Assembly (NCBI GenBank): GCA_028286585.1
Contig: JAQBRI010000008.1
Span: forward strand, 84,476 to 148,475
Source of the DNA: Candidatus Kaiserbacteria bacterium
GTDB taxonomy: Bacteria > Patescibacteriota > Minisyncoccia > Phycocordibacterales > UBA2100
DNA: 64,000 bases
Direction: 5' to 3'
In this document: positions 1 to 29,165 of the stretch, piece after piece
Numbering within the stretch: the stretch's first letter is position 1
Layout: each line of letters begins with the position of its first letter
Translations under genes and position numbers: made by a program
The notes under the pieces: generated by a model
Databases searched by the model: none
Told to the model about the DNA's origin: nothing
The model's input: only the letters and a program-made list of their open reading frames with translations

Positions 1-590
1 CAGAAGTTGCGACCATGGGATATTACATGAACGAAGTAATCGAAAAAAGTACGCTTCCAGAAAAATTCCTTTCGTTTTCACCATGTTACCGCCGCGAGGC
101 AGGAGCGCATGGCAAGGATACTCGTGGATTGATACGTGTACACGAATTTTATAAATGGGAACAGGTTATATTATGCGAAGCATCACACGAGGAATCGGTA
201 AAATGGCATGAATGGCTCAACAGAAATACCGAAGAGTTTATCGAGTCTCTCAAAATTCCGTATCATACTGTTGTTAATTGTGGCGGAGACCTGGGGCTAG
301 GTCAGGTAAAAAAGTACGACATCGAATTATGGGTGCCGGGCGAAAATACATACCGAGAAATTGCTTCCACTTCATACTTTCATGATTTCCAAACTCGTCG
401 TTTAAATATCAGATACAAAGATGATGCCGGTATTATGCGATTTGCACACTCGATGAATTCGACCGCCGTGCCTACTCCTCGCATTTTGGTTTCAATTATT
501 GAAAACTATCAGCGTGCCGACGGTTCGATCGAGATACCTGAAGTACTTCGATCATTTATGGGCAAATATGCGATCGAAAAACGTAATTGA
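1..590 (+). CDS. serS: Seryl-tRNA synthetase, C-terminal part. The 5' end lies outside the window.
   Basis: The frame is open from the window edge. It carries class II aaRS motif 2 'FSPCYRREAG' and the C-terminal SerRS core 'GLGQVKKYDIELWVPGENTYREIASTSYFHDFQTRRLNIRY'. Confidence 0.85.
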   Translation, partial: EVATMGYYMNEVIEKSTLPEKFLSFSPCYRREAGAHGKDTRGLIRVHEFYKWEQVILCEASHEESVKWHEWLNRNTEEFIESLKIPYHTVVNCGGDLGLGQVKKYDIELWVPGENTYREIASTSYFHDFQTRRLNIRYKDDAGIMRFAHSMNSTAVPTPRILVSIIENYQRADGSIEIPEVLRSFMGKYAIEKRN

Positions 591-1494
591 TTTACGCAAT
601 AGGCGTACCGATACAAGAGCCCCGCAGCCAGCTCATGCGGTACGACTCAAGGATATTCGTCGCGCCTCACCAACTCGTGCACGCCGAAGACGGTTTCGTG
701 TTGTCGCACTGTGCATCGTATTCGCATTACTTGTTGCTGGTACCTACAGCGTACATGTTGCCTCGTATGCAGAAAGATTAACGGTACAAGACGCTGTAGT
801 TACTGGTGGTACTCCCACATTGCAAACCCAGGTGCATGATTTTGCACTGCAACAACTACAGGCATCGAGTACATCCTTTTTGTCTAAAAAGAATATATTT
901 TTGTATAATGTTACGCCTCTTGCGACAGCACTCTTTGCAGCATATCCGCAAATAGCTTCAATAAAGATAGAACATACGAGTCTTTTCTCGAGAACACTTA
1001 CAATTACCATCGTTGAGCGAACTATTTATGGATGGTGGTGCGACAACTTTGTTGATTGCTATGCTATGGACGCAACTGGAAAGATATTTGCCCAAGCAAC
1101 TGCCACGAGTTCACTGCAGCATTTTATTTTTAGAGGAGGCATTTCTGCGACATCAAGCCCGATAGGGCAGATGTATTTGCCTACACATATTAAGGCTGTT
1201 AATGAAATGTTGCAGGCGTTTATAGCGGCAGGAGTAACACCGCTTGGCGCAACCGCAGTTAATGATCAGGATTTTAATATAAATTTGTCGGACGGCTCCT
1301 ACATCAAGGCGTCATTTTCTGAAAATCCGACGGATGTCGTAAAAAATGTACTTTTAGTACGTAATTCCAATGAATTGGCGCACGCTACAAGCAGTATCGA
1401 CTATATTGACGCGCGATTTGGCGACCGTATTTATTACAAACTCAAAGTTGGAGAACCTGCCACCTCGACCGCAACATCAAGTCCGTTGCACTAG
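568..1494 (+). CDS. FtsQ/DivIB-like cell-division protein (POTRA-type). The start is uncertain: the track ORF begins at 499 inside serS.
   Basis: A basic cytoplasmic tail (RRASPTRARRRRFR) is followed by one TM helix and then an extracytoplasmic domain. The architecture and size match FtsQ. Confidence 0.5.
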   Translation: MRSKNVIDLRNRRTDTRAPQPAHAVRLKDIRRASPTRARRRRFRVVALCIVFALLVAGTYSVHVASYAERLTVQDAVVTGGTPTLQTQVHDFALQQLQASSTSFLSKKNIFLYNVTPLATALFAAYPQIASIKIEHTSLFSRTLTITIVERTIYGWWCDNFVDCYAMDATGKIFAQATATSSLQHFIFRGGISATSSPIGQMYLPTHIKAVNEMLQAFIAAGVTPLGATAVNDQDFNINLSDGSYIKASFSENPTDVVKNVLLVRNSNELAHATSSIDYIDARFGDRIYYKLKVGEPATSTATSSPLH

Positions 1495-1534
1495 CGATTA
1501 CTCAATTCTGCGCAAAATATGCTAGTGTATCTCC

Positions 1535-2497
1535 ATGGAATCGTTTTGGAACAAACTAGAAAAGCCTTTCTTTGTATTAGCGCCAATGGAAGACGTGACT
1601 GATGCCGCATTCCGCAAACTTATTGCAGAATACGGAAAGCCCGACGTTACCTGGACTGAATTTACATCTGCCGATGGCCTCGTACGTGCAAACGAAAAAG
1701 GCATGCGCCGGCTCAAACAAAAATTGCTGTACCAAGAGGGCGAGCGACCAATCGTGGCCCAGCTGTTTTCTGCTAATCCAGATAATATGGAAGTTGCGAG
1801 CAGACTGTGTGCAGAACTTGGGTTTGATGGGATAGACATCAATATGGGCTGCCCCGACAAGACTGTCGAAAAACAAATGTGCGGCTCGGGAATGATCAAA
1901 CACCCAGAACGGGCTATCGAAATTATCCGTGCTGCAAAAAGGGGAGCGGGCAGTGTGCCCGTAAGTGTTAAGACCCGCATCGGGTACGCAGGGGATGAAA
2001 TAGATACATGGATAGCGACTTTGCTTCGTGAAGACTTGGCCGCACTTACGGTGCATTTGCGTACTCGTAACGAAATGTCAGATGTGCCAGCACATTGGGA
2101 TCTTATGCCGCGCATCGTTGCCTTGCGAAATAATATTGCACCGCATACGCGCATAATAGGGAACGGTGATGTTCAAAACATTGCAGATGCAAAAAATAAA
2201 ATAGAAGAGAGCGGCTGTGATGGCGCAATGTTTGGTCGCGCAATATTTGGCAACCCATGGCTGTTCACAGGTGTCGACAAAGACACAATTTCACCAGACG
2301 AAAAAGTAAAGACCCTTATAAAGCACATTTCATATTTTCAGGAATTGCTTACAGGAATAGTAAGCGAAGCCGTGATGAAGCGGCATTTTAAGGCGTATGT
2401 GTATGGATGGCCAGGAGCGGTCGAATTGCGAAGCAAACTCATGGAAACAAATAATCTGGACGAAGCAAAAGAGATATTGAGTACGGTCACTTTGTAG
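1535..2497 (+). CDS. dusB: tRNA-dihydrouridine synthase (Dus family)
   Basis: It has the N-terminal Dus signature 'LAPMEDVTD', the 'INMGCP' motif and a catalytic Cys context; 320 aa. Confidence 0.85.
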   Translation: MESFWNKLEKPFFVLAPMEDVTDAAFRKLIAEYGKPDVTWTEFTSADGLVRANEKGMRRLKQKLLYQEGERPIVAQLFSANPDNMEVASRLCAELGFDGIDINMGCPDKTVEKQMCGSGMIKHPERAIEIIRAAKRGAGSVPVSVKTRIGYAGDEIDTWIATLLREDLAALTVHLRTRNEMSDVPAHWDLMPRIVALRNNIAPHTRIIGNGDVQNIADAKNKIEESGCDGAMFGRAIFGNPWLFTGVDKDTISPDEKVKTLIKHISYFQELLTGIVSEAVMKRHFKAYVYGWPGAVELRSKLMETNNLDEAKEILSTVTL

Positions 2498-2510
2498 TAT
2501 AATCATCATC

Positions 2511-3551
2511 ATGACAGAAACAGAGCATTCGACGCTTTATCGAACATACCGCCCGGGTACCTTCGAGGAAATGAAAGGGCAAGAGCATATCGTTACTGCT
2601 CTTACGCAGTCGATCAAGTCTGGCAAAATTGCTCATGCATATTTATTTTCAGGTGGACGAGGTACCGGCAAAACGACTGCAGCCCGAATCTTGGCCAAGT
2701 CGCTGGGTGTTTCGAATAAAGATATTATCGAAATGGACGCTGCAAGTAATCGCGGCATTGATGACATTCGCGAATTGCGCGAAGGTGTTTGGGTCATGCC
2801 TTTTGAATCTCCCTACAATCTATACATTATCGACGAAGCACACATGCTCACCAAAGAGGCATGGAATGCACTTTTGAAAACGCTTGAGGAACCGCCATCG
2901 CATGTGATATTTGTTTTAGCAACAACCGAGCGTGACAAAGTGCCCGAAACTATACAATCGAGATGCGAAATTCATACCTTTAGACAGCCTTCACGAGAAC
3001 TGCTTTTTGAAACCGTTACGCGTGTTGCAAAAGAAGAAGGCTTTGCGCTTGAACCAGCGGGAGCAGAGCTTGTTGCGTTACTTGCCGAAGGGTCTTTTCG
3101 TGATGCACTTTCGATTTTGCAAAAGGTGCTTGGTTCGGCATCCGGCAAAAAAATCGATATCGCACATGTTGAGCAAATGTCAGGAGCTCCACGTGGAGAA
3201 ATAGTGAGAACTTTTGTGCGAGCTATAGGCGAAAGAAATACGGCACAGGCACTTACTGCAATAGGGATAGCAGTCAAGGAAAATATCGATATGCGTACGT
3301 TCACAAAACTGATTATCAATCGATTGCGAATCGTCCTTCTCACACGTTTTGCACCGGATTTGGCAAATGACCTATCGGCTGAACTAACAGAAGCCGATGC
3401 AACGTTAATAACCGAATTGAGTAAGAACAAAAACGTTACCTCGGACACGCTCCGAACTATCCTAGAAGCCTATTCACAAATGGCATATGCCGCCGTCCCG
3501 CACTTACCGCTTGAGCTAGCAGTGGTCGATATGGCAAAAGAACCTTTGTAA
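2511..3551 (+). CDS. dnaX: DNA polymerase III subunit gamma/tau (short form)
   Basis: The N-terminus 'YRPGTFEEMKGQEHIV' is followed by Walker A 'GGRGTGKTT' and Walker B 'YIIDEAHML', then 'SRC' sensor motifs typical of clamp-loader subunits. Confidence 0.8.
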   Translation: MTETEHSTLYRTYRPGTFEEMKGQEHIVTALTQSIKSGKIAHAYLFSGGRGTGKTTAARILAKSLGVSNKDIIEMDAASNRGIDDIRELREGVWVMPFESPYNLYIIDEAHMLTKEAWNALLKTLEEPPSHVIFVLATTERDKVPETIQSRCEIHTFRQPSRELLFETVTRVAKEEGFALEPAGAELVALLAEGSFRDALSILQKVLGSASGKKIDIAHVEQMSGAPRGEIVRTFVRAIGERNTAQALTAIGIAVKENIDMRTFTKLIINRLRIVLLTRFAPDLANDLSAELTEADATLITELSKNKNVTSDTLRTILEAYSQMAYAAVPHLPLELAVVDMAKEPL

Positions 3552-3596: not shown

Positions 3597-3670
3597 TGGG
3601 AGATCGTCTAATGGTAGGACAGCAGCCTTTGAAGCTGTGAATCTTGGTTCGATCCCAAGTCTCCCAGCCA
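3597..3670 (+). tRNA. tRNA-Gln (anticodon UUG), with encoded CCA
   Basis: Manual fold: acceptor TGGGAGA/TCTCCCA, D-arm GTC-TAATGGTAG-GAC, anticodon stem GCAGC/GCTGT with loop CTTTGAA (UUG), T-arm CTTGG-TTCGATC-CCAAG, discriminator G, then CCA. Confidence 0.9.
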
Positions 3671-5359
3671 AGTTGGAACTCGATGAGGGAACGTGCCTGC
3701 AAGTCTTTCATTGAAGCCATCATTTGTAGGTTCGAGCGTCGAATGCAGTTTACGCTGCGTTTGTAATTCATTTTCTATCAATAAATACGGATGGAGCTTA
3801 TTAATCATAAGTTTTTTGTCTTTTAAGGTTAGGTTCGAGCCGATTGTCGAAAAAATACTTCGCCTCGTCTTTGTATCGCCGTTCATAAATTTCACTCGTG
3901 CCAAGTGGCAGAAATCGACGACTCGCACCGTTTCTTCAAGGGATTGCTCAAAATGATCACCTATTTCTATGATGCGCTTTTCCAGATTTCTTCGCTCTAT
4001 GGAAAGTTCATTTTTCTTAAATAGAAATTCATCAGGTGAAAATATCTCATGATTAGAATTGTGAGCAGATGTATATTCTCGCTCGAGGTTCTTAAAACGC
4101 GTTTGGCAATCTGCTAGGGCAGCATTTAGTGAATCTCGAATTTTCTTCTCATCGTTTCCATCATGTTTGCGTTTCTCTTGCAGATATTCCAGAGCAAGGT
4201 TCAGATAATCGTCGTCGATAGTAATGTCACCAAGAATGATATCAATTTGTCGTACTAGCTCGCTCTCCAGTATGCTACCTTGAGTACATTTCAAATTCTT
4301 TTTCTTTGTGCAATGGTAATACACATAATGCAAAGTCTTTGGCTCTTCCATTTTGTTTATCTTTTTACCACATTTTGGGCACTCAGTTTTATTTTTGTAT
4401 GAAAACTTGTTTTTGCAGTTCGTGCAGATCAGTTGATTTTTTATATCCACCGTGACAGATGAATCACATTCGCCACATCTTATGAGGCCTGTATATGAAG
4501 ATTCGTGTACGCGGCCTCTATGCTTTGATTTATTGCCAAGTAAGATTTGGATACGCAGAAACTCAGCTTCGGTAATCATTGGCATATGGTTACCTTTGTG
4601 AAGTTCACGCACGCTAGTTTCAGAATTTTTCCATTCGAAGTAGCCGTAATAGAACGGATTATTTAAAATTTGATATAAGTTGCTGAATACCAGTGGGCGA
4701 CCGCCAGATTTTTTCTTGTGCATAGTTCGGTACCCCCATTGGTTATTCATGATATCCAAAAGTTTAATGCCAGAGTATTCCCCAGTGAGATATAAACTAA
4801 ACATGCTACGAATTAAATCGAAACGCTCAGGATCGGGAATAATGGTGCGATTACCTTGCTCTCCGGTAAGTAAGTAGCCCGGAGCTGTTATACCAGGTCG
4901 CCAGCCATGCATAACACGGCTCTGTAGGCCACGTTTAACATTCTTCGACAGTCTCATCACATAATCCGTCGCACGACCTCCTTCGATGCTCATTAGTAAG
5001 CCTGCGTCCTCTGGGTAATATGCACGCCCTGGAGTCTTAATAACTTTAATCACACTTTTCTGTAGCATCCACTGGAGTTGTCCGTTGTCTATCGGATTAC
5101 GAGATAAACGATCGATGTCCCAGCATATTAATGCATTTGCTTCTCCTTTCTCAATACGACGTAACATTTCATTGAATATAGGTCGCCCTGGATCTTTTGC
5201 GCTGCGCACCTCAGTAAATGGAGTATTGACTAATGTGATACATTCACGCTCTGCCAGTGTTTGCAGAGCATGCACCTGGTCGCCAATGGATGCTATTTGT
5301 CGTTGTGAATCCTCGGAACTTTTTCGACAGTATGCAAAGTATTTTAATGAGGATTCCAT
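3608..5359 (-). CDS. Large serine recombinase (integrase). Its C-terminal ~20 codons are read antisense through tRNA-Gln.
   Basis: The resolvase-type catalytic domain has 'YCRKSSEDS' and 'DRLSRN'. A recombinase domain, a Cys-rich zinc ribbon (CGECDSS...CTNCKNK...CPKCGKK) and a coiled-coil tail follow; 583 aa. Confidence 0.85.
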   Translation of the reverse strand: MESSLKYFAYCRKSSEDSQRQIASIGDQVHALQTLAERECITLVNTPFTEVRSAKDPGRPIFNEMLRRIEKGEANALICWDIDRLSRNPIDNGQLQWMLQKSVIKVIKTPGRAYYPEDAGLLMSIEGGRATDYVMRLSKNVKRGLQSRVMHGWRPGITAPGYLLTGEQGNRTIIPDPERFDLIRSMFSLYLTGEYSGIKLLDIMNNQWGYRTMHKKKSGGRPLVFSNLYQILNNPFYYGYFEWKNSETSVRELHKGNHMPMITEAEFLRIQILLGNKSKHRGRVHESSYTGLIRCGECDSSVTVDIKNQLICTNCKNKFSYKNKTECPKCGKKINKMEEPKTLHYVYYHCTKKKNLKCTQGSILESELVRQIDIILGDITIDDDYLNLALEYLQEKRKHDGNDEKKIRDSLNAALADCQTRFKNLEREYTSAHNSNHEIFSPDEFLFKKNELSIERRNLEKRIIEIGDHFEQSLEETVRVVDFCHLARVKFMNGDTKTRRSIFSTIGSNLTLKDKKLMINKLHPYLLIENELQTQRKLHSTLEPTNDGFNERLAGTFPHRVPTWLGDLGSNQDSQLQRLLSYH

Positions 5360-5491
5360 AAAGGGTATATATTGATAATAACATTACTTATAAATGGGCT
5401 CAGTTGATCGGCAGAAAACGTACATTACTAATGTATTGCAATTTTGCTGAATTAATACCAGAAAGAGATAAGCAAAGTGGCAACACATATA

Positions 5492-7543
5492 CTAAAAGTC
5501 ATCTAATAGTTTTTGCAATTCATCAGGCTCTACAAGCTCGGGTCGTGGTGATACTTCATTTTGCATAAAGTATTCATCTCTTTTCCCTTTTTTTCTTTTT
5601 CCAATGATATTGGAAGTAAGTAAGCTTTTTAAGGCGTCCTGAACATTACGTTGCCCAATTTGCTTATTGGATTGACAAATACGTTTAATATCCGGAGTCG
5701 TTTGTGGTCCTTCAATAAGAATACTTGGAATGTATTCAATCGCCTCACTAATTTTAGATTCCTTTTCTTCAATTTCTCCATTGTAAATCAACGAAGTCTT
5801 TCGCTGAATTTGGCTTTCATCATCAACCATATCGACCTTAAAAGGTTCAATTTCCTTGTCTAAACGATTTTTTCGTTGATAGATAGTAATGCTGTCATTT
5901 GTTTTCTTCATCATTAACAATATATCTACGCTTGCTGCTTTATCTTGACTACCCAGGAGGTGTTCCTTTTTCGGGACGCCCCCATCGAATCTTTCCGGTT
6001 TGCGTAAATGGTCAAGCCAAATGAAGCACACATTATTTTCTCTCATCTTTTTATAACGGTTAAAGAATTTTCTGATTTCTTCGGCTTTTTGTTCTTCCAA
6101 ACCACCTGCAACAGCACGAAATGTATCAATTATGACAACATCTATTTTTTGATTATGTATCGTCTCAATCAATTCTTTTGCCCAGGCATCATCATTTAGA
6201 TTAATATCATCGGCAGGTAGAAAGATTAGGTTGTCTGAGTCTGTCATACCAAGCTGTCTGCCGCGACTTTGAATTTGCCGTTTGCCGTTTTCTGCATCTA
6301 CGTACAGCACTCGACCTTGCTGGGTTGGATATTTTTCTTCACCAAATAAAGGGGCACCGCTTGATATACATTTTGCAAATTCCATAGCCATCCAGGTCTT
6401 ACCTTCACCTGAGATTGAGGCGAGAATCACTATACCTGCTTTTGGAATAAGGTTCGGGATGCGCCATCGATTTGAAGGGAATTCAAGGGCATCGAGCTCA
6501 CTCCATCGCATCGTGCATATTTTTTTCGTTTTTTCTTCAATATCTGGCTTTTTTTCAGCAAAATTATTTCTTTTCGACTGATCTGGATACTTATTGCATA
6601 ACCACTTATAGGCCTCCTTGTTATCAATTTTAAGTGTTTCGGCAACATAAGTAATGGCATTACCTTTTGCCGGAAAGTCACTACTCGTTGTTGCAATGTA
6701 ATTTCCATCACCTTGGCGGCCTTTAAATGTAGCAGTAGTAACACCATCTATAACAAGATGCCCCTGTTTATTAAACTCGGCCTTTTTCCCAAGTTCTGCC
6801 CATACATCAATTGCGGTTTGTTGAATATCGAAACCCTCACGATCCGCGCTAGCTTCAGTGTTCTTCTGACTAACAGGCTCTTCTGCTTTAGATTGCGATG
6901 GAGTATAGGGAAAGTATTGTTCGAGTTCAGTAATCGTATATGTTTTCCCGTTACCATTTTCCTCAGTGATTAAATAAGGTTCAGATTTGTTGTGATAATA
7001 TCCTGGTTTTCTCAACACACGCGTTACGTCCTTTACAGGATCGCCTTTTGAACCATATTTTATTGACCATTGTATTACACCATTTACCACGTTCTTATAT
7101 CGCTCCTGAGTATGTGTATCAATTTTGTCTTCGTTCAACCACCAGAGTGGTTGTAGGCCATTTTTAGTTATAATCCACACTGAAGGTGAGCAGTGAGCTG
7201 TAAATGCCATTTTAAGGTCAGTCTTGCGACTTTCACGATCCGACTCACTAATTTTTTCGTCGTCCTTGCATACATCAAGATCAGCAAAAACTGCATTCAA
7301 TTTCGTTAAAAATTCTTTGTTACGCTTTGTTTTAGCACCAGATTCTCTTAATTGCTCATGTGTAGCAAAAAAAGAATTTGCTGTCTCAAAGATTCCATAA
7401 CCCTGTGCATTTATGGCCTTAAGTTTATCTTCATGAGGATTTTCAAGTGTAATAGGTATTTTTACCTTGTCTTTATCACTGAAACAAACGACTAGTCGTA
7501 TACCTTGGGTCTCGATTGCTTGAATCGAGCTATTAGTTTCCAT
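5492..7543 (-). CDS. Replication protein of the element: an N-terminal primase-like domain fused to a RepA/DnaB-family P-loop ATPase (helicase-like)
   Basis: The C-terminal half has Walker A 'ASISGEGKTWMAMEFA', Walker B 'VVIIDTF' and 'LDHLRK', as in AAA_25/RepA-like replicative ATPases. The N-terminal ~320 aa resemble phage/plasmid primase N-domains. Total 683 aa. Confidence 0.65.
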   Translation of the reverse strand: METNSSIQAIETQGIRLVVCFSDKDKVKIPITLENPHEDKLKAINAQGYGIFETANSFFATHEQLRESGAKTKRNKEFLTKLNAVFADLDVCKDDEKISESDRESRKTDLKMAFTAHCSPSVWIITKNGLQPLWWLNEDKIDTHTQERYKNVVNGVIQWSIKYGSKGDPVKDVTRVLRKPGYYHNKSEPYLITEENGNGKTYTITELEQYFPYTPSQSKAEEPVSQKNTEASADREGFDIQQTAIDVWAELGKKAEFNKQGHLVIDGVTTATFKGRQGDGNYIATTSSDFPAKGNAITYVAETLKIDNKEAYKWLCNKYPDQSKRNNFAEKKPDIEEKTKKICTMRWSELDALEFPSNRWRIPNLIPKAGIVILASISGEGKTWMAMEFAKCISSGAPLFGEEKYPTQQGRVLYVDAENGKRQIQSRGRQLGMTDSDNLIFLPADDINLNDDAWAKELIETIHNQKIDVVIIDTFRAVAGGLEEQKAEEIRKFFNRYKKMRENNVCFIWLDHLRKPERFDGGVPKKEHLLGSQDKAASVDILLMMKKTNDSITIYQRKNRLDKEIEPFKVDMVDDESQIQRKTSLIYNGEIEEKESKISEAIEYIPSILIEGPQTTPDIKRICQSNKQIGQRNVQDALKSLLTSNIIGKRKKGKRDEYFMQNEVSPRPELVEPDELQKLLDDF

Positions 7544-7819
7544 ATTTTTGAACAGCTAGAGGAACTGCATCCACAAGCGTCACCAATTTCTCAAAAAGCA
7601 GAAGAGTATCATCTTCAGATAAGATTTTGCCAGTCTTAATTTCGTGGAGATCTCTGAATTGGTTCAGATATTTTGCTTTATCTAGCATACATCCGCTCAA
7701 GGTTATGCAGGCTCAATCGTGGTGGACCTGCACACCCTTAAAAGGACGTACCCACGATTGATGGAACTCTTTTTTGCGGTGGATGAAGAATAGACTTCAA
7801 TCATTTCTAAACGCAAATA

Positions 7820-7883
7820 AGATAACAAACCAAAAGGTTTATCTTTAAAATTTATCTTATTTTTTATCTATGAAATTATCTTT
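7820..7883. repeat. Cluster of five TTATC(T) heptamer repeats (iteron-like or DnaA-box-core-like) upstream of the replication gene
   Basis: TTATCTT at 7839, 7852 and 7877, TTATCTA at 7864, and an inverted GATAAC at 7820, all in an AT-rich non-coding stretch. Confidence 0.4.
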
Positions 7884-8233
7884 TCTTCGAGAAGTCGGGT
7901 TTGGCATAAATGCCGCCGCCTGTATTCTCTGCTTTCCTAATAACAATATCACATAATATAAGTATGTAAAATTTGATACGTGTATAAGTAAAAAAATGTG
8001 CTTTTGTCATAAATTGTGTAAAATGTATATACACAACCAATATCGAGCCGAAAGGCAAGTGCCTAAACTATCGAGTAATCGATGGCATGGTGCAAAATCG
8101 CGACAAATGTAGAAAACCCGTTATCAGGGCGTTTGTCGCGTTATGCAGGGAAACTTGCATAGGGCCGCAAGGCCTCCTGGTAGCGGGCTTTATGTTGCCC
8201 AGCTATCAGCATTATCAGTAATGCAAAAAAGCT

Positions 8234-9394
8234 ATGAGCAAAATACTTTCATTTCTAAATTTGATCGGCGCTTTTTTAATTTTTTTAGTATATATCGCAA
8301 TAGCACTTACGCTACTTCTTTTTATACCCACATTACTCTTTGGAGGAGGAGTTTGGTTTTATACAGATTATCTTGCGCCTCTCTTAAAATATGTAGATTA
8401 CATAGCAGCCCTACTTTCTATAATCTTTTTGTTTCTTTGCATTTTTCGCAAGTACAGAATATTCGCTGGGTCGGCTCTAGTCTATTGCTCATATGCGATC
8501 GGTGTTGACCTGTGGTTTCAGTCACTCATTAACACCTACATTTCTTTCGGTCCTGTCGGTACTATATTAGGAGTGTTTTTTCTAGGAGTTGGTGTTTTCT
8601 TTACGGGACTTGTTGCACTATTATGGGCTCACTTATTCACCGCATTTTGGTCACTTCTTGGTTCGGGCTTATACATGATTGGAATACGATGGTTTGGTTT
8701 ATATATCGCACAAAATGAGACTGATAGTCAATATGATCCAAATTTGGACGAACCCGATGAGGATGGAATTACAGAGCGAATGATTCAGAAAATGATAAGT
8801 AAAAATGGGAGCAATAAAAATGTAATAGAAGATATTAGCACGGAATATATAGAGCCAAGGCAAGAGATTGTGAAATTCGACGCAGAAGAGTATCTCTCTC
8901 TGCTGAAAATTACAGAAACATTTATTAATAGAGGGAGATCGGACGATCCACCAAGATTTGTTATTTTTATGGGAGGAGTGGGTAGCGGAAAAACGACATC
9001 ACGCAGGGTGAATTTTTCTATCAACTACGTTAATTTTGATTTTGGAGAAATCCATCTCTCGCTAGAAAAAGCATTTGGTGTGAAATTTCCTCGAATTTCG
9101 GAGTATGCCTCTTATGTAAGTGATCTTGTCTTGCGGCAAGCTCTGCAAGAAAGAAAAAAAATCGTCATTGAAATTATAGGTGATAGCTACGCTCTGATTT
9201 CTCCGGTAATTAATGCAATGAAGGGAATCGGATATGACGTCTCTATAGAAGGTATCATAGATGACACTGTTGCAAGTTACGGAAGATATATGTATGCAGT
9301 GGATAAAGATCCTGACTATATCTCGGCAGCCGATACTCAGGAATTAACACTAAGTTTTTTCCATCACTATTTCGGACTGGTACCAGCGCCATGA
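8234..9394 (+). CDS. Membrane-anchored P-loop NTPase (kinase- or zeta-toxin-like C-terminal domain)
   Basis: About five predicted TM helices in the first 160 aa. The soluble C-terminal domain has Walker A 'FMGGVGSGKTTSRR'. Confidence 0.5.
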   Translation: MSKILSFLNLIGAFLIFLVYIAIALTLLLFIPTLLFGGGVWFYTDYLAPLLKYVDYIAALLSIIFLFLCIFRKYRIFAGSALVYCSYAIGVDLWFQSLINTYISFGPVGTILGVFFLGVGVFFTGLVALLWAHLFTAFWSLLGSGLYMIGIRWFGLYIAQNETDSQYDPNLDEPDEDGITERMIQKMISKNGSNKNVIEDISTEYIEPRQEIVKFDAEEYLSLLKITETFINRGRSDDPPRFVIFMGGVGSGKTTSRRVNFSINYVNFDFGEIHLSLEKAFGVKFPRISEYASYVSDLVLRQALQERKKIVIEIIGDSYALISPVINAMKGIGYDVSIEGIIDDTVASYGRYMYAVDKDPDYISAADTQELTLSFFHHYFGLVPAP

Positions 9395-9449
9395 ACCGAA
9401 TGTCTCAGAGGGCAATAGAGTTGCGGTATTAGCGAGACAAGTAGTATAG

Positions 9450-10508
9450 TTGCCTTCATGGAACTATTGGAACAGGAGAAAAATACTGCTTATACAGTCT
9501 AGACAGAATAAAGCCCGCATGAAACTATTCTCTGAACATTTTGCAGAATTAAAAAGCGACGAACAGCTCGAGGCGCTGCATATGGAATTTCCCCAATACG
9601 ATATTGCATACTTAGTACAAGGTGCGTATGGGCTCCGAAGACACACAAAGGAGTGGATGGAAAGCATGTGGACGCTGTATGAGCCATATGCTGATCCACA
9701 TTTCCTCAAGGAGTTCAAAAGGCATTTTACGCAGCGTTCCTGGGAATTGTATTTGGGCGTGACGCTTCTCAATCATGGTTTCAAGTTAGGCGAACATAAG
9801 AGTGCCGGCGCAGACTTTGATGTGCAGGACGTAAATGGTGAACGTATTATGTGGATAGAGGCAATTGCTGTAAACCCGGGAGATGGGGCAGACAGGGTAC
9901 CAGACCATGCGTATGAAGTTGTAAGAAGTATACCTGTGGATGAAATGCTTTTGCGCGTTGCAGCTGCCTTGGACACAAAGCATAAGAAATATCTTTCTGA
10001 TGTAAAAAATGACTTTGTTGCGAAGACGGAGGCATATGTCATAGCAATCGACCGTTCTGAATTGGGTCATGTGGAAATTCCCCCATCACTCATTTTAAAA
10101 GCTCTTTTTGGTGTCGGTCACCAAACGTTGAGTTTTCCAGTACCTGCCATGGACGAGCCTTCAAGAAGCGTCGAACCAAAAAGATCTTGGGGGGCACTAC
10201 CCGAAATTTCAAAGAAAAGTGGTAATCCAGTATCTATGCGTTTTTTCGAGAATCCCGCACATGCTGGTATAAGTGCTGTAATTTATTCCGTGCCGCATGT
10301 AATTAATAGTCCGCGTCTGCCGGATGAGATGGGTGAGCATTTCTACGTTGTCCATAATCCGCACGCTATAAATCCAATCCCCTTTGGCGTATTGCCATTT
10401 GGTGAAGAGTATCGAGTTGATGAGGATGTAATAAACATTATACGAGAAAGGATGGCATATCAATCACCTGATCCTTTTGAATACCTTGCGACTTCCAACG
10501 AAGAATAA
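9450..10508 (+). CDS. Hypothetical protein
   Basis: 352-aa ORF with no recognisable motif. It may contain a PD-(D/E)xK-like 'DFDVQD...IMWIEAIAV' segment, which is weak. Confidence 0.4.
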   Translation: MPSWNYWNRRKILLIQSRQNKARMKLFSEHFAELKSDEQLEALHMEFPQYDIAYLVQGAYGLRRHTKEWMESMWTLYEPYADPHFLKEFKRHFTQRSWELYLGVTLLNHGFKLGEHKSAGADFDVQDVNGERIMWIEAIAVNPGDGADRVPDHAYEVVRSIPVDEMLLRVAAALDTKHKKYLSDVKNDFVAKTEAYVIAIDRSELGHVEIPPSLILKALFGVGHQTLSFPVPAMDEPSRSVEPKRSWGALPEISKKSGNPVSMRFFENPAHAGISAVIYSVPHVINSPRLPDEMGEHFYVVHNPHAINPIPFGVLPFGEEYRVDEDVINIIRERMAYQSPDPFEYLATSNEE

Positions 10509-10509
10509 C

Positions 10510-11316
10510 TTACTTTGTAGGGTGTGCTTTCGTGATTTCACCTTTGTAGCCCAGAGAAGCAAATATTGCTTTCCAGCTCAGAAAAAGAATCTCACTCGGC
10601 GTTAAGTTCATATGCATCTGTATAACCGGATGACCAGTTGAATTTTTGATGACACTTGATTTCAAAACGATTGTGGAAGTTACTATGGAATCGAGTCCAG
10701 CAGCATGCAAAAAACCATTTCGTATTTTATCGTACAAGTCTTTAATGACATCATCTAGGTTATTTATTCTCAGATCGTCTCGCTCAGATGGTCTATAACA
10801 ACTTACAACCCTCTGCACTTCTTCTGGAGTTAGAAAGGTTGAATAAAACCATATTAGTCTTGCTCTCATGGATGGTGGGTGTTGAGCAGCATGCTCAGCA
10901 GCAAGTTTTTCAAGCGAATCGACGTTTTTAATTTCGTCAAATTTGTTTTTTAGAAAATCCACAAAACTTACACGAGGTTCCGCATGTTCTTTGGTAAATT
11001 TATCCACGATGGAAAACATCACGGCGATTGCTATGTTTGACCAGGCCATGTCCGCAAACATTTCGGGAAGGGTGCGACGTTTTCCTTCTTCTTCAACCAA
11101 TAGAACAGAAACGGACTCCATAATAACCTTGAAAAAAATAAGTAACATCCCAAGTGAGATGATTTCTTCAGATTTCAATTGTGATAGAAAAATATGTAGT
11201 TCTTTCTCGTTTTTGAAATCCATGGCCCAGCCATTTCCAAAACATTTGCTTCCTGGACCTAAAATTTCTAAGATTTGAGCAACCCGCTCTTTAATTGTTG
11301 GTACATCACCTATCAT
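10510..11316 (-). CDS. Hypothetical protein with a HEPN-like Rx4H motif (Abi-like candidate)
   Basis: The 268-aa alpha-helical protein carries 'RNGFLHAAG' (R-x4-H) in its C-terminal third, as in HEPN/AbiD-F-type RNases. Confidence 0.4.
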   Translation of the reverse strand: MIGDVPTIKERVAQILEILGPGSKCFGNGWAMDFKNEKELHIFLSQLKSEEIISLGMLLIFFKVIMESVSVLLVEEEGKRRTLPEMFADMAWSNIAIAVMFSIVDKFTKEHAEPRVSFVDFLKNKFDEIKNVDSLEKLAAEHAAQHPPSMRARLIWFYSTFLTPEEVQRVVSCYRPSERDDLRINNLDDVIKDLYDKIRNGFLHAAGLDSIVTSTIVLKSSVIKNSTGHPVIQMHMNLTPSEILFLSWKAIFASLGYKGEITKAHPTK

Positions 11317-11396
11317 AAATTCACATTATATAGACTATTAATCAAGTTAGAAGTACGCCATTTTGAACCTGATTAATTGATTTAATCATACTTTAG

Positions 11397-11810
11397 TTGT
11401 TATTCATGAGAGTAGCGTTACAATATTCACATATGAAAGCAAGAGGAGGATCACGGCCAAACGCAGGACGTAAAAGGGGCTTAGCAAGCATAACAGCTGA
11501 ACAGGCTAGAAACTATGCCATACAACGCATTACAGCCGAATTAGAACCAATTCTTACTGGGCAGATAGAGGCTGCAAAGGGAATGTATTACGAAGTCATC
11601 GATGACCAAGGTGAAAAAGTTGTTTACCAGCAGAAACCAAATGCACGGGTTGCAGAGTATCTTATCAGTCAGGTAATAGGAAAAGCAAAAGAAACTACGG
11701 ATCTAAATATTAAAGTACCATTTTCTCTATATGAGCTCGCAAAAATGAGGGATGCGGAGAGATTAAAAATGACTGATGGACAACACTATAGAGTTGTAAA
11801 TAATAAGTGA
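11397..11810 (+). CDS. Hypothetical small basic protein, possibly DNA-binding
   Basis: N-terminal 'GGSRPNAGRKRG' basic stretch (AT-hook or terminase-small-subunit-like); 137 aa. Confidence 0.35.
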   Translation: MLFMRVALQYSHMKARGGSRPNAGRKRGLASITAEQARNYAIQRITAELEPILTGQIEAAKGMYYEVIDDQGEKVVYQQKPNARVAEYLISQVIGKAKETTDLNIKVPFSLYELAKMRDAERLKMTDGQHYRVVNNK

Positions 11811-11819
11811 AAATACACA

Positions 11820-12440
11820 ATGAGCTGGATATCAAACAATATTATTGGAATTATAGGAATTGTCGTAGGCGGTTTTATTGCATACCATGTATATTTTTTG
11901 TCTCTGCAGCTCAACTTGAAGGACAAACTCGTATACAAAGACAGTGTGCGAAAGAAAGTTGAACCCTTATTGGCCAGAATAAATAATGGTATTAGTAGTA
12001 AATGCGAACTAGTCAACGTTAAGAAGTATTTGAAATACTATCCGCACAATAATGACTTGAATAAAGATGGCTACACATATCTGGGTGCAGAATTGAAAGC
12101 ATTGCAGTTTGATGGTGTTGAATTTTTTTGTGGCGTGAGAGAGCTCTTCAAAAAACCGGATGGCAGCTATACACTCAAAAAAGAGGAAAGTACAGTGCGT
12201 GAAGAGTATAATGCTCTAGAGGCGGGTGTAATCCCTTATGAGTGGATTGAATATATAGATGGCAGAGGTGATGAGTATAGTTATCGTCCGCAGTTTTTCA
12301 CCCAATTTAAGGGTGAAAGGAAGTCGCCATATAAACACCTGTCATATTACATTCAGAGTGATACGTATTACGAAGGTAGAGATCCAATGGATTTTAAGTG
12401 GCGTAGAATAGAAGTAGAACAAAATAAGTCACTAGTTTGA
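11820..12440 (+). CDS. Hypothetical membrane-anchored protein
   Basis: N-terminal TM helix followed by a 206-aa ORF. It sits 10 nt after the upstream gene. Confidence 0.4.
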   Translation: MSWISNNIIGIIGIVVGGFIAYHVYFLSLQLNLKDKLVYKDSVRKKVEPLLARINNGISSKCELVNVKKYLKYYPHNNDLNKDGYTYLGAELKALQFDGVEFFCGVRELFKKPDGSYTLKKEESTVREEYNALEAGVIPYEWIEYIDGRGDEYSYRPQFFTQFKGERKSPYKHLSYYIQSDTYYEGRDPMDFKWRRIEVEQNKSLV

Positions 12441-12465
12441 ATATGAAGCAGTTTTATGAACAAAA

Positions 12466-12495
12466 AAGGTTCGAATAGCCTCTACAGTGTCCAGC
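12466..12495 (+). repeat. Degenerate copy (copy 0) of the cassette-boundary repeat
   Basis: AAGGTTCGAATAGCCTCTACAGTGTCCAGC against the consensus GGTTCCAACATCGTCCCAGACTGCCAGC. Confidence 0.4.
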
Positions 12496-12938: not shown

Positions 12939-12986
12939 GGTGACCTCCTTGATGATCTGGAGAGAACTCTAACATAGTTGTAAAAA

Positions 12987-13014
12987 GGTTCCAACCTCGT
13001 CCCAGGCAGCGAGC
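12987..13014 (+). repeat. Cassette-boundary repeat, copy 1
   Basis: GGTTCCAACCTCGTCCCAGGCAGCGAGC, 20 nt upstream of the ATG at 13034. Confidence 0.6.
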
Positions 13015-13033
13015 AATCTGATATAGTTATGTC

Positions 13034-13432
13034 ATGAATCCCGATCCACGCCTACATCACACAGCAAAGCGTATACAACGAGGAAGCCTAGGGAATGTAA
13101 TCGAAATGTTTGCATTACTTGGTTGTAAAGTGTCGTATCGCCCAGAAGGCAATGGTTGGGCAATGATTGGCCAAGAGGGACTTAATTTTGATATCCAGCT
13201 CATTGAGGTAGATGGTATACCGTTAGAAGGTGAGACTCGAAGAGATTCACAAATCTCCTTTGTTTCTGAAAATCCTACTGATCATATTAATAAAGTCCAT
13301 ATATGGGCTGAAGAAAAAAACCTTACATTTATTCAAAAGTCATGGAACGAACGTGAGCATTACTTTGATTTGCCTGATCTCTTTGTTGACTGGGTTGTAG
13401 AAGTAATGCATATATCGGTTGTTGAAAGCTAA
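13034..13432 (+). CDS. Hypothetical protein (cassette gene)
   Basis: 132-aa ORF bounded by repeat copies 1 and 2. Confidence 0.4.
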   Translation: MNPDPRLHHTAKRIQRGSLGNVIEMFALLGCKVSYRPEGNGWAMIGQEGLNFDIQLIEVDGIPLEGETRRDSQISFVSENPTDHINKVHIWAEEKNLTFIQKSWNEREHYFDLPDLFVDWVVEVMHISVVES

Positions 13433-13433
13433 A

Positions 13434-13461
13434 ATTCTAACATCGTCCCATACAGCCAGCC
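13434..13461 (+). repeat. Cassette-boundary repeat, copy 2
   Basis: ATTCTAACATCGTCCCATACAGCCAGCC, starting 2 nt after the stop at 13432. Confidence 0.6.
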
Positions 13462-13485
13462 AATATTGTTTTTTTAATGTAAACT

Positions 13486-14004
13486 ATGTCGATGACACTT
13501 ATTATTATCCTGTTAATCATCATAGGGTTAGCAGTTGTATTTTCTTTAATTCAAAAGGGCGAGAATGTGGAAGTCGAGCATCCGGAAGTACATTCTATTC
13601 AAGAGCAGAAAGATCCCATGCCCTATGTAAGGAAGCAGTATTTTATGACAAATTCAGAGTTAAATTTTTTTAGAAATCTTGAAAAAATAAACCAAAATAA
13701 ATATTTTATTGTTCCTCAAGTATCGTTATCCGGACTAGTTTCAGTTGCTGATAATGAATTGATGAGAAAAACATATAACAATAAAATCGATAGAAAGTCA
13801 GTAGATTTTGTTCTATTTGATAAAGCTACTTTCCTTCCAAAATTGGTAATCGAATTAGATGATAGATCTCATGATAGATATGATAGAAAAATAAGAGATG
13901 AATGGGTCGATGATGTAATGAAGAAGGTGGGTATAAGGATAGTTCACGTCAAGGCTTCTTATTCCTACAATTTGGTGCCAATCGAAGGTCTTTTAGCTGG
14001 TTAA
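13486..14004 (+). CDS. Membrane-anchored DUF2726-like protein (PD-(D/E)xK nuclease-like fold)
   Basis: N-terminal TM helix, then 'FMTNSELNFFRNLE...FIVPQVSL...VDFVLFDK...LVIELDD', which matches the DUF2726 / restriction-endonuclease-like core. Confidence 0.5.
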   Translation: MSMTLIIILLIIIGLAVVFSLIQKGENVEVEHPEVHSIQEQKDPMPYVRKQYFMTNSELNFFRNLEKINQNKYFIVPQVSLSGLVSVADNELMRKTYNNKIDRKSVDFVLFDKATFLPKLVIELDDRSHDRYDRKIRDEWVDDVMKKVGIRIVHVKASYSYNLVPIEGLLAG

Positions 14005-14016
14005 GTATTTTAAAAT

Positions 14017-14045
14017 AGTTCCAACGTGGTCCCAGACTGTCAGCC
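14017..14045 (+). repeat. Cassette-boundary repeat, copy 3
   Basis: AGTTCCAACGTGGTCCCAGACTGTCAGCC. Confidence 0.6.
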
Positions 14046-14114
14046 CTTGACTTAAGTATTTTTGAATGGTAATTTCTTGAAAGAAGTTTCCACTCCCATA
14101 AGGAGCAATTAAAG

Positions 14115-14459
14115 ATGAAGTTCGTTTTCATAGCACATCCAATGTCGGGAGACATAGAAGGAAATATGCAGAAAGTTGTTGCTATCTGTAGAAGTATTCA
14201 TTCCGAAGAAATTATTCCCGTCTTTCCAAGTGCACTGACAAGGAGATATCTCACGCCAGATCCACGAGACCGCGCACTCGCCCAGACGATGATCGAAGAA
14301 TACTTTCGTCGAAGGATCATCGATGAAGTCTGGCTCTATGGCACTGATTTAACAGATGGCATGAAGAGAGAGGTGCGTTTTGCGGTTACCTACAACATTC
14401 CTGTTGTGGCACAGACACCTCAAATGCAACTTTCCCTCGACACATACTTAAAAGTTTGA
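14115..14459 (+). CDS. DUF4406-like (nucleoside 2-deoxyribosyltransferase-like fold) small protein
   Basis: 'MKFVFIAHPMSGD' N-terminus and 'DEVWLYG', typical of the DUF4406/NDT-like family; 114 aa. Confidence 0.4.
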   Translation: MKFVFIAHPMSGDIEGNMQKVVAICRSIHSEEIIPVFPSALTRRYLTPDPRDRALAQTMIEEYFRRRIIDEVWLYGTDLTDGMKREVRFAVTYNIPVVAQTPQMQLSLDTYLKV

Positions 14460-14526
14460 CATCACCTTCGTTTGTATTAAAAACCCTCCGGTCTACATTG
14501 ACGGCGGGTTTTCATTTATCCAAAAA

Positions 14527-14554
14527 GGTTCCAACATCGTCCCAGATTGCAAGC
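14527..14554 (+). repeat. Cassette-boundary repeat, copy 4
   Basis: GGTTCCAACATCGTCCCAGATTGCAAGC. Confidence 0.6.
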
Positions 14555-14612
14555 TAGACGTGTTATTGCAAACGTGGTATTGTTTTGTTCAGAACACAGG
14601 AGGAGAGAGATT

Positions 14613-15032
14613 ATGTCTCAAAATGTTCGCTCGTACTGCGACGCGATTTTCGCGTCAATTCCGACGACCACGATCGAAGTCAAGACTATCGAAGGCACCA
14701 AACGCTTTGTCTTTGGTTTGGTTCAAAGTCAAACGTTGTGCGGCGACGATCTGGGAACATACAACAACTACCAAATCGTCGAGATACGAAGAAGGGGCGA
14801 GGCATCGACGGCAATACTCTCTCTTCAAATGGACACGCGACAATGTGGGCCGACACAAGTCTACATTCGCGGTGAGGCTGCCAAAGATTGGTTTGCTGCG
14901 TCTTCAAAGTGGTTTCCAATCCTTGAAATAACAGCAGATATGTTCGAGGAAGGTGATACACTGATCGTTCCTGTTGCGATCGAGTTTCTCGCACGACTGG
15001 TTCTTTATCGCATCCGAAAACAGGCCTCATAA
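14613..15032 (+). CDS. Hypothetical protein (cassette gene)
   Basis: 'AGGAGGAGAGAGATT' RBS precedes the ATG at 14613. The track ORF starts upstream at 14547 without an RBS. Confidence 0.45.
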   Translation: MSQNVRSYCDAIFASIPTTTIEVKTIEGTKRFVFGLVQSQTLCGDDLGTYNNYQIVEIRRRGEASTAILSLQMDTRQCGPTQVYIRGEAAKDWFAASSKWFPILEITADMFEEGDTLIVPVAIEFLARLVLYRIRKQAS

Positions 15033-15053
15033 ACTTGAGTACACGAAAATCAA

Positions 15054-15092
15054 AAAGGCCGCCTCACCAGTATTGGTTTGGGCGGCTTTTCA
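15054..15092 (+). terminator. Rho-independent terminator after the 14613-15032 gene
   Basis: GGCCGCC...GGCGGC stem followed by TTTTC. Confidence 0.4.
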
Positions 15093-15102
15093 TATGGCAA
15101 AA

Positions 15103-15129
15103 ATTCCAACATCGTCCCAGACTGCCAGC
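15103..15129 (+). repeat. Cassette-boundary repeat, copy 5
   Basis: ATTCCAACATCGTCCCAGACTGCCAGC, the closest match to the consensus. Confidence 0.6.
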
Positions 15130-15190
15130 AGGCATTTTTTAAAAAGAAAACGCCCCCGAAAGAGAGCGTCTCCGTCGGCGGGCAGTTTAG

Positions 15191-15559
15191 TTAGGGTCGT
15201 AAGTACAAATTTCTGTCCTTGAGTCGTTTACATATTGCGCCAATAATATATGAGCTAAAACCGGCTGCGTGTAGGTCAGACCGGGTCTTTTTCAACAGGT
15301 CGCTCACAGTCACAATATTGTTTTGTTCAAGCTTATTGGTTGTAGTTATGCTCAGATCAAGTACATGCACTCCTTCATTGGTCATCGCATCTTCAACATG
15401 CTCGTCAGGAAGAATATCACTGGCCTCGCTTAGTAGTGCTTGGTAGACTTGAAATGCTTCAAGCGTCATTGAATTGCGAAGATGGCCGACTAACCGGCAT
15501 GCTATACACGGCTCAAGCGGCATACAGCCTGCTCGATGGTCAAGAACTAGCACTTTCAT
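15191..15559 (-). CDS. Small protein with an RNA polymerase alpha-subunit C-terminal-domain-like (HhH) domain
   Basis: The C-terminus 'LDLSITTTNKLEQNNIVTVSDLLKKTRSDLHAAGFSSYIIGAICKRLKD' aligns with alpha-CTD '[48 protein letters not shown]'. Start taken at MKVLVLD. Confidence 0.45.
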   Translation of the reverse strand: MKVLVLDHRAGCMPLEPCIACRLVGHLRNSMTLEAFQVYQALLSEASDILPDEHVEDAMTNEGVHVLDLSITTTNKLEQNNIVTVSDLLKKTRSDLHAAGFSSYIIGAICKRLKDRNLYLRP

Positions 15560-15620
15560 GTCATGACTCCCTAAAGGTTCTTTTATATTTATTGCATGAT
15601 AAAAACATTTTGTCAAATAA

Positions 15621-15647
15621 ATTCCAACATTGTCCCATGTTGTAGCC
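15621..15647 (+). repeat. Cassette-boundary repeat, copy 6
   Basis: ATTCCAACATTGTCCCATGTTGTAGCC, lying between two minus-strand genes but still in + orientation. Confidence 0.55.
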
Positions 15648-18218: not shown

Positions 18219-18330
18219 GACGGAATCCTTCTTTCGCCCAGAACAGGCTGGACAGAATGTAGCATATGTTGCACAAAAATTCCACTACTATTCCATGCTG
18301 CCATTGGCTACAGTTTGGTATACTTTGTAT

Positions 18331-20888: not shown

Positions 20889-20926
20889 AAAGCCGAACAC
20901 CCCTCTCGGGTAAGTAGGCTTTTTTC
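20889..20926 (+). terminator. Terminator-like repeat element, copy 1 (AAAGCCGAACACCCCTCTCGGGTAAGTAGGCTTTTTT)
   Basis: Outer stem AAAGCC/GGCTTT enclosing inner stem ACCC/GGGT, followed by a T-run. Confidence 0.5.
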
Positions 20927-20961
20927 ATTTTAAATATTATTTATACTGATATACTTACTAG

Positions 20962-21342
20962 ATGAAACTCGATGCAATTGGGGTTGTGAGCAAAGATATT
21001 AAAAAGTCGGTAGCGTTTTATAAGCTGCTTGGTTTTGAATTTGGCGAAGTACCAGACGATGCAATGCATATTGAGGCCAAGCGCCAAAATGATTCTGTAC
21101 GATTCATGATTGATAATTATGAAATGATTAAGGAACATACGGGTATCGATACAGAGCCGTCAAACATGTCTTCGTTTGCAATCTTGTGCGACAATCCAGC
21201 AGATGTTGATTCTGCGGTACAAAAAATAAAAGACGCAGGCTACACAATTGCCAAGGAGCCATGGGATGCGATGTGGGGTCAGCGATATGCCGTTGTGATT
21301 GACCCGGACGGCTACGGAGTCGACTTGTTTGCCACACTCTAA
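20962..21342 (+). CDS. VOC / glyoxalase-bleomycin-resistance family protein
   Basis: The 126-aa protein has a 'MKLDAIGVVSKDIKKSVAFYKLLGF' beta-alpha-beta-beta-beta module. Confidence 0.65.
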   Translation: MKLDAIGVVSKDIKKSVAFYKLLGFEFGEVPDDAMHIEAKRQNDSVRFMIDNYEMIKEHTGIDTEPSNMSSFAILCDNPADVDSAVQKIKDAGYTIAKEPWDAMWGQRYAVVIDPDGYGVDLFATL

Positions 21343-21408
21343 AATATAAAAATACCCAGGCCTTTAAACTCGTTTTACAAACGACACAGGGCACTGTAGA
21401 GTTTAAAA

Positions 21409-22269: not shown

Positions 22270-22281
22270 CAAATCGCTGTT

Positions 22282-22313
22282 CAATAGACAGGAGGTAAAA
22301 TAGTGGTAAGCTG
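22282..22313 (+). repeat. Conserved leader CAATAGACAGGAGGTAAAATAGTGGTAAGCTG, copy A
   Basis: Identical 32-mer also present at 22767-22798. Confidence 0.5.
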
Positions 22314-29162: not shown

Positions 29163-29165
29163 AAT

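Follow-up and report, generated by a model that had tools for sequence, protein, structure and literature searches.

A 64,000-nt stretch of a Candidatus Kaiserbacteria contig (JAQBRI010000008.1; hereafter the window) carries an intact tRNA-Gln(UUG) gene on the plus strand (positions 3597–3670), recognized by both ARAGORN and the Rfam tRNA model (62 bits), and a 583-aa open reading frame (ORF) on the minus strand (3608–5359) that ends inside this tRNA gene. An initial annotation, made from the letters of the sequence, had proposed that positions 3597–8230 form the core of an integrative element in which a large serine recombinase (LSR) is read antisense through the tRNA, and the overlap proved to be 63 nt long, or 20 sense codons and a stop. 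The encoded protein matches the Pfam families Resolvase (PF00239, E = 4.6e-17), Recombinase (PF07508, E = 4.3e-9) and Zn_ribbon_recom (PF13408, E = 7.4e-6), giving the arrangement expected of an LSR, with an N-terminal resolvase domain and a C-terminal recombinase domain and zinc ribbon. It also matches a PHROG integrase family at 9e-60, and SPbeta integrase structures align to residues 8–461 (2e-7). Alignment with 31 homologues revealed that Y10, R12, S14, Q21, R84 and R87, which include the nucleophilic serine and conserved arginines, are invariant, as are the cysteines C295, C298, C312, C315, C327, C330, C350 and C358. A degraded or frameshifted recombinase had been named in advance as grounds for abandoning the proposal; the gene is intact and its catalytic residues are conserved. 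Judged by its sequence, the protein appears to be a bona fide large serine recombinase.

The tRNA-Gln gene is identical in the window, at an empty site in a related genome (L085), and in a relative where another LSR element occupies it (L082), up to ...TCTCCCAGC, and the three sequences diverge directly after this point. The junction therefore lies at the final bases of the tRNA, and the tRNA itself is host DNA, constituting the B arm of attL. The tRNA has its T-loop, GGTTCGA, beginning 22–23 nt from the junction, and its last two bases (the CA of CCA) are supplied by the element side. Only 5 nt are common to attL and attR, the core CCAGC, which at attL occupies positions 3664–3668 on the plus strand (tRNA positions 70–74). 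Comparison of the two junctions indicates that LSR strand exchange took place inside this 5-nt core, within which the crossover dinucleotide must fall if the junctions have been read correctly; the tRNA-Gln therefore stays intact. The adjacent segment (3669–3695, plus strand) corresponds, by half-site comparison, to the putative P′ arm. It holds a GAAC about 22–26 nt from the core that mirrors the GTTC of the P arm, and its opposite strand encodes the LSR residues ...FPHRVPTW. Because the P′ arm sits within the last codons of the LSR gene, the ORF extends across attL and continues in antisense orientation along the tRNA to the first in-frame stop; Trp565 (TGG) is the antisense of the tRNA-encoded CCA, and host tRNA DNA encodes only the final ~17 residues. 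The antisense reading proposed initially is correct; the 3′ half of the tRNA, which lies within the range flagged at that stage, belongs to the host and not to the element, and only its terminal CCAGC occurs at both junctions. We also considered whether elements of this family as a rule supply the CCA end of their target, and rejected this idea: CCA is encoded in 30/60 LSR-adjacent tRNAs and in 19/54 others (p = 0.13).

The right end of the element is found at 12468–12495 (plus strand), where attR consists of the P arm GGTTCGAATAGCCTCTACAGTGT and the core CCAGC, followed by aaaatt. This site aligns without gaps with 13 other attR sites, and the 27-nt arm is gap-free across all 14 elements, the sites being conserved as far as a tRNA-specific 5–8 nt and unrelated beyond it. 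The aligned arms share GTTCTAAYAGCCTCNAC, followed by the last 5–8 nt of each element's own target tRNA: CGGAGC for tRNA-Asn, CTCCGC or CCCGC for tRNA-Ser, CTGGAC for tRNA-Lys, and TCCAGC for the window element. Cores of 5–9 nt equivalent to CCAGC are present in the 13 other elements. In L009 and L007, for example, the final 7–8 nt of the tRNA targeted reappear at distances of 6.7 and 7.4 kb, respectively, after the near-identical arm AAGTTCTAAYAGCCTCARC. A pattern scan for attR-like sites in homologous loci gave 11 matches on the expected strand and 2 on the control strand. With attR located, the element spans positions 3669–12495, a length of 8,827 bp, and has a GC content of 39.3%, compared with 44.9% in the left flank. 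The range of 3597–8230 proposed initially covers its left half only, the full element reaching 12495 and being considerably longer than 4.6 kb. Mapping by comparison with strains bearing an empty site, the approach suggested at that stage, settled the position of the left junction only: the right flank is rearranged or unrelated in L085, L088 and L089, and L081–L084 hold another element. A boundary immediately after the LOOT RNA described below, where the shared hexamer CCCAGC occurs (8203–8208), was rejected: it has no conserved arm, and related loci lack a matching core after LOOT.

In all 14 P arms, 27 nt separate the start of the T-loop-like GTTC from the core end, as opposed to 22 nt for the T-loop in the tRNAs, placing the GTTC of the P arm 5 bp further out than that of the tRNA. 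In serine integrases, the motif recognized by the zinc-ribbon domain lies 5 bp further inward in attB than in attP (PMC3783163). The predicted att sites of the window element thus exhibit both the limited identity between attL and attR (here 5 nt) and the 5-bp shift of the outer motif that characterize serine integrases. Junctions of the form P–core–P′ directly adjoin the 3′ end of the LSR gene in L004 and L052, and likewise in over 30 loci belonging to a sister subfamily (39–44% identical), whose arm, which we term type B, consists of GGTTCGAACATCGTCC and a 12–14-nt mimic of the tRNA end. These junctions represent either free forms or tandem insertions.

The LSR is followed, on the minus strand, by the gene for a 683-aa replication protein (5492–7543) with a primase/polymerase-like N-terminus and an AAA_25 (RepA/DnaB-like) helicase. 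Its initial designation as a primase-like protein with a RepA/DnaB-family ATPase is borne out by matches to AAA_25 (residues 344–516, E = 1.8e-30) and to a primase/polymerase PHROG (residues 39–210, E = 1.3e-15), and the helicase half is kept beside the LSR in nine related loci. The first gene of the operon is a small ORF of ~51 aa (MLDKAKYL...; 7533–7700, minus strand) that is conserved in eight loci, has no match in Pfam or PHROG, and is a candidate regulator or directionality factor. Just upstream of it lies a perfect inverted repeat (7713–7761), a candidate operator, and a large palindrome occupies this position in each of the five close loci checked. This repeat had been noted at 7714–7760 with 9-bp arms; the arms are in fact 10 nt long (7713–7722 and 7752–7761). 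Similarly, the five TTATC(T) heptamers reported in this region form a genuine local cluster (7815–7889), which is composed of four direct copies of TTATCT (at 7838, 7851, 7863 and 7875, the third with one mismatch; 12–13 nt apart) and one inverted copy (7818–7825). In the corresponding region of L009, TTATCTT makes up a perfect inverted repeat of 15 nt, and the motif is not clearly recurrent in other loci. The iteron-like arrangement makes this region a candidate origin. Scans with promoter and terminator consensus sequences yielded no excess over shuffled expectation.

Between the replication region and the cargo, within the range originally flagged, lies a LOOT RNA (RF03000; 8060–8175, plus strand, with an extended form at 8050–8204). 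It scores 84.4 bits against a gathering threshold of 46.4, covers model positions 1–121, and is transcribed away from the replication and integration operon. LOOT also exceeds the threshold in six of the seven close loci, where it lies on the strand opposite to the LSR and 2–3 kb upstream of it. When seven copies were aligned, a further covarying helix of 12 bp emerged, which closes the structure by pairing positions 8117–8128 with 8176–8187, precedes a U-run (8189–8196) and has no counterpart in the Rfam model. This helix is 95% paired, with six pairs changed on both sides, and pairing falls to ~40% when one partner is slid along the other. A covariance model built from the seven copies finds matches in 23 of 80 genome loci and, within the same clade, in 10 loci from metagenomes, and has no match in host-only loci. 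As judged by this distribution, LOOT is a conserved core component of these LSR elements, among them those of the window, L001, L002, L004–L007, L009, L012–L015 and others. Our literature search found no functional description of LOOT and no link between LOOT and mobile elements.

The only proteins common to the window element and its closest loci are the small ORF product, the helicase half of the replication protein, and the LSR, and the conserved module consists of these together with LOOT, with variable cargo. The cargo region (8234–12440) comprises five ORFs, at 8234–9394, 9450–10508, 11397–11810 and 11820–12440 on the plus strand and 10510–11316 on the minus strand, none of which is conserved in related elements. 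The product of the second (9450–10508) has matches to two candidates for anti-phage defence, PD-T7-5 (1.9e-17) and PD-T7-1 (4e-13), as well as to PHROG 8571, making it a PD-T7-5/PD-T7-1-like defence candidate.

More than 2,400 homologues of the LSR were recovered, and the relationship to tRNA genes was surveyed in 80 homologous loci from species-representative genomes (labelled L001 and so on). The LSR ORF ends inside the 3′ end of an opposite-strand tRNA gene in 48 of the 80, which is far beyond chance and constitutes a property of the family. The overlapped genes encode tRNA-Asn (the commonest; some of these genes carry group I introns), Gln, Trp, His, Ser, Lys, Leu and Ile. Many of the target tRNAs are interrupted by group I introns, as in L006 (11744–11995) and L016 (3917–4201) and also in L010, L030, L034, L045, L046, L059, L066 and L069, and standard tRNA scans overlook or mis-assign such genes; group I introns in tRNA-Asn genes of Patescibacteria have been documented (PMC13011429). 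Among the 31 aligned LSRs, the C-termini carry W-L-R/G followed by tails such as DSNP, DSNQ and DQGSNLG, which are translated antisense T-arms of tRNAs. These elements form a large, apparently undescribed family that targets tRNA 3′ ends; our literature search found no account of serine-recombinase elements at tRNA genes in Patescibacteria.

Occupancy of the tRNA-Gln(UUG) site differs even among related genomes, as would be expected of the integrative element proposed initially. The site is empty in L085 (dnaX 79% identical), L088 and L089; in L082 (dnaX 89% identical) it is occupied by a different element with a 551-aa LSR, and L017, which retains the dus–dnaX–tRNA-Gln synteny, has yet another LSR. 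Three different LSR elements and three empty sites are thus represented at this one gene. The element at tRNA-Gln in the closest relative, L081–L084 (11801–21041), encodes the 551-aa LSR, a Toprim primase, a DUF5659 protein, an HTH_17 gene and an N6/N4 methyltransferase, and in these loci a ParE-type toxin pair lies between dnaX and tRNA-Gln. The region downstream of dnaX and tRNA-Gln is hypervariable and rearranged among Kaiserbacteria (L081–L090 compared with window 3551–26000), and synteny with L085 resumes only at window positions 25909–32309.

Taken together, these observations make it likely that the locus holds an 8,827-bp integrative element, probably self-replicating and with no detectable phage genes, that was integrated by its LSR at the extreme 3′ end of tRNA-Gln(UUG). 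We propose a mechanism in which the LSR would read the T-loop of the tRNA (GGTTCGA) as the outer attB motif bound by its zinc-ribbon domain, and the T-loop-like GTTCKAAY, 5 bp further out, as the equivalent motif of attP. The final 5–9 nt of the acceptor end, which are matched by the core, would then determine which tRNA is used. Excision would produce a circle with the attP site GGTTCGAATAGCCTCTACAGTGT-CCAGC-CAAGTTGGAACTCGATGAGGGAACG, for which the predicted junction is ACAGTGTCCAGCCAAGTTGG (in longer form ...CTCTACAGTGTCCAGCCAAGTTGGAAC...), and would restore attB with the predicted junction GTCTCCCAGCAAAATTAAAA (in longer form ...CCAAGTCTCCCAGCAAAATTAAAAACGG...). The recombinase encoded by the circle is expected to be 584 aa long and to end in a different tail of 19 residues. 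Replication of the circle would rely on its own primase/helicase and start from the TTATCT repeat region, possibly under the control of the small ORF, LOOT RNA, or both.

Several observations weigh against this proposal. A search of metagenome and viral contigs for the exact attL/attP junction gave no match, and none of the contigs with an element of this type was a clean circle. The sole circular assembly, L098, is an 11,434-nt contig with a 63-nt terminal repeat that contains a related element; it has an attR-like arm and, 165 nt further, a 23-nt tRNA-Ser 3′ fragment abutting the LSR end, and shows no simple attP. Either a tandem copy or a non-canonical circle may underlie this arrangement. 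Unusually for LSRs, the right arms of attB show no conservation from one host to another, and the arm given for this site (AAAATTAAAAACGG...) is a reconstruction, no available close relative pairing an empty site with the same right flank. Regarding replication, the primase assignment comes from the PHROG match, with the Pfam RepB_primase model reaching E = 0.14, and the replication protein has no match in the PDB. No recombination directionality factor was identified in the element. The origin-like cluster is short, and WTTATCTT occurs 12 times in the whole window where 9 occurrences are expected; therefore only its local clustering is notable.

An arrangement of the kind formed by tyrosine integrases, with a crossover deep in the tRNA such that the element supplies the tRNA 3′ half and the original half is displaced to the far end, is the usual case at tRNA genes. 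The 63-nt cover of the tRNA by the LSR ORF would suit element-borne sequence, and L002 and L098 hold only a ~23-nt tRNA 3′ fragment beside the LSR. No second copy of the tRNA 3′ half was found anywhere in the window, and a far boundary marked by such a direct repeat was rejected. Moreover, attL and attR share just 5–9 nt, and the enzyme is a serine recombinase, for which a 2-bp overlap suffices. The attR sequence is also 5 nt longer than the tRNA 3′ end and is conserved among elements at different tRNAs, and it is therefore element DNA. We consider such an arrangement very improbable. Equally improbable is a small prophage or phage satellite that uses the LSR for lysogeny. LSRs are classic phage integrases, the LSR and replication protein both match PHROG families, and the cargo includes a defence gene, as that of satellites does. 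Yet Pfam and PHROG searches detected no capsid, terminase, portal or tail genes in the 8.8 kb, related elements measure just 6–12 kb, and the LSR family has no relative among 2.9 million IMG/VR viral contigs; the absence of the family from IMG/VR and the lack of phage structural genes argue against a prophage.

A further question is whether the antisense read-through is functional, with the host-encoded tail marking the integrated state or antisense transcription regulating the tRNA. The tail of the integrated form (...WLGDLGSNQDSQLQRLLSYH) does differ from the one predicted after excision (...WLDTVEAIRTFFVHKTASYSN), and the junction-crossing frame (W-L-R/G) is conserved in the family. Against this, the overlap ranges from 13 to more than 250 nt across loci, most family members stop 1–4 codons past WLR, and the tails are conserved no further than the tRNA sequence dictates. 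Because the overlap length simply tracks the first in-frame antisense stop of each tRNA, the tail is most likely a by-product without function, and a functional role appears improbable. The possibility of a decayed, immobile remnant, in which the LSR and replication genes persist in an element that no longer moves, is unlikely as well, if less so than the others. It would fit the junction searches, which turned up no circular forms, and it accords with the accumulation of hypothetical genes in genomes of this phylum and with the downstream array, where old insertions are decaying in place. However, the three core ORFs are full length with all family-invariant residues present, both att arms fit the family consensus, and the strain related at 89% has a different element at the same tRNA, which implies recent turnover. 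A mobile integrative element thus remains our preferred interpretation.

Outside the element, further att-like arms occur downstream, most of them in an array at 12983–15647. Type-B arms (GGTTCCAACATCGTCCCAGACTGCCAGC) are present on the plus strand at 12983, 13429, 14013, 14523 and 15098, with degenerate versions at 15616 and 18274 (18274–18303). They are 28–30-nt mimics of the tRNA-Gln 3′ end, all on the tRNA strand, and they separate single small ORFs (including those for DUF2726 and DUF7768 proteins) at intervals of 446–584 bp. The array contains no pseudogene remnants of LSR or replication genes. An integron is marked by an IntI tyrosine integrase with attI and attC hairpin sites; no tyrosine recombinase was found beside the array, and its repeats are direct mimics of a tRNA end. 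Such arrays have a cassette-like appearance, and they look like successive insertions of LSR-less units or heavily decayed elements. Elsewhere in the window (54888–55765), tRNA-Gln(CTG) is immediately followed by a 240-aa ORFan (55000–55722) that is closed by a type-B arm (55736–55765), the core of which, CTCCCAGC, matches tRNA-Gln(UUG) rather than tRNA-Gln(CTG); homologues of this single-gene unit, sought as a test of cassette mobility, were not found. Six type-B arms lie downstream of the resident element in L007 (~90–3400, minus strand), and four of them are followed within ~10 nt by TTGAC(A/G/T), with TTGACA in two, as if each unit had a promoter. Repeats of another kind occur at window positions 20889–23261, which hold three copies of a 47-nt hairpin and T-run repeat (AAAGCCGAACACCC...GGCTTTTTT); together with a 69-nt repeat (22280 and 22765), the 47-nt repeats flank ~110-aa paralogous ORFs (22346–23643).

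A broader interpretation joins these features, and we offer it, as a whole, tentatively and as more doubtful than probable. A large LSR clade of Patescibacteria (Candidate Phyla Radiation) and other uncultured bacteria might use the universal tRNA T-loop as a fixed motif and be retargeted between tRNA species by altering only the last 5–14 nt of the attP arm. Its elements might depend on LOOT RNA for replication or for control of directionality, and they, or relatives with type-B arms, might load LSR-less single-gene cassettes in trans into arrays downstream of tRNAs. If correct, this would represent a naturally modular, re-addressable integrase platform and a serine-recombinase analogue of the integron, a source of hypervariable regions in tiny genomes. 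A serine-integrase family found at many tRNA ends, with attP arms that are near-identical save for a short tRNA-specific end, suggests in itself a re-addressable choice of target, and serine integrases are widely used in genome engineering. Little is known of mobile elements in Patescibacteria; those described here, with the adjacent arrays, may explain the hypervariability downstream of dnaX and tRNA-Gln in Kaiserbacteria and the movement of defence genes between reduced genomes. The orphan LOOT RNA gains a genomic home in mobile elements, making its function testable. Should the element prove inert, it would still exemplify a known kind of element, cleanly and with precise boundaries.

The window element shares features with several established systems. 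Phage LSRs (those of Listeria A118/LI, SPbeta, phiC31 and Bxb1) have the same Resolvase–Recombinase–zinc ribbon architecture, short att sites and the 5-bp shift of the outer motif. Unlike these enzymes, the Kaiserbacteria LSR targets tRNA 3′ ends, its attP extends into the final codons of its own gene, attB has an unconserved right arm, and the carrier is a small element without recognizable phage genes. tRNA genes are classic targets of tyrosine integrases. The pSAM2-type elements of actinomycetes and the satellites known as phage-inducible chromosomal islands and Staphylococcus aureus pathogenicity islands combine an integrase, a replication protein or primase, and an origin at a tRNA or other fixed site, and replicate after excision; they mostly use tyrosine integrases and carry genes for conjugation or phage packaging. 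The organization of integrase and replication genes is alike, whereas genes for conjugation or packaging were not found in the Kaiserbacteria element. The archaeal integrases of SSV1 type are tyrosine recombinases with attP inside the int gene, which is split upon integration. An att site overlaps the integrase gene in both cases, but the Kaiserbacteria LSR exchanges only its last ~17 residues and its ORF stays intact. The downstream array resembles integron cassette arrays in that both comprise ~500-bp single-ORF units in one orientation, separated by repeats resembling recombination sites; the integron differs in having attC hairpins and IntI, in place of which the array has 28–30-nt tRNA-end mimics and no IntI. 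Tycheposons of Prochlorococcus are similar in their site-specific integration beside tRNAs, their integrase and primase/helicase, their variable cargo, and their tandem arrays and remnants, although the likeness is one of architecture only. Tyrosine recombinases are used by 910 of 937 tycheposons and LSRs by the remainder, and partial tRNA-like repeats mark their arrays and remnants, building variable islands (bioRxiv 10.1101/2020.12.28.424599). They reside in another host phylum, LOOT RNA has not been reported for them, and the repeats that they leave are true partial tRNA duplications, whereas the repeat in Kaiserbacteria is an arm encoded by the element.

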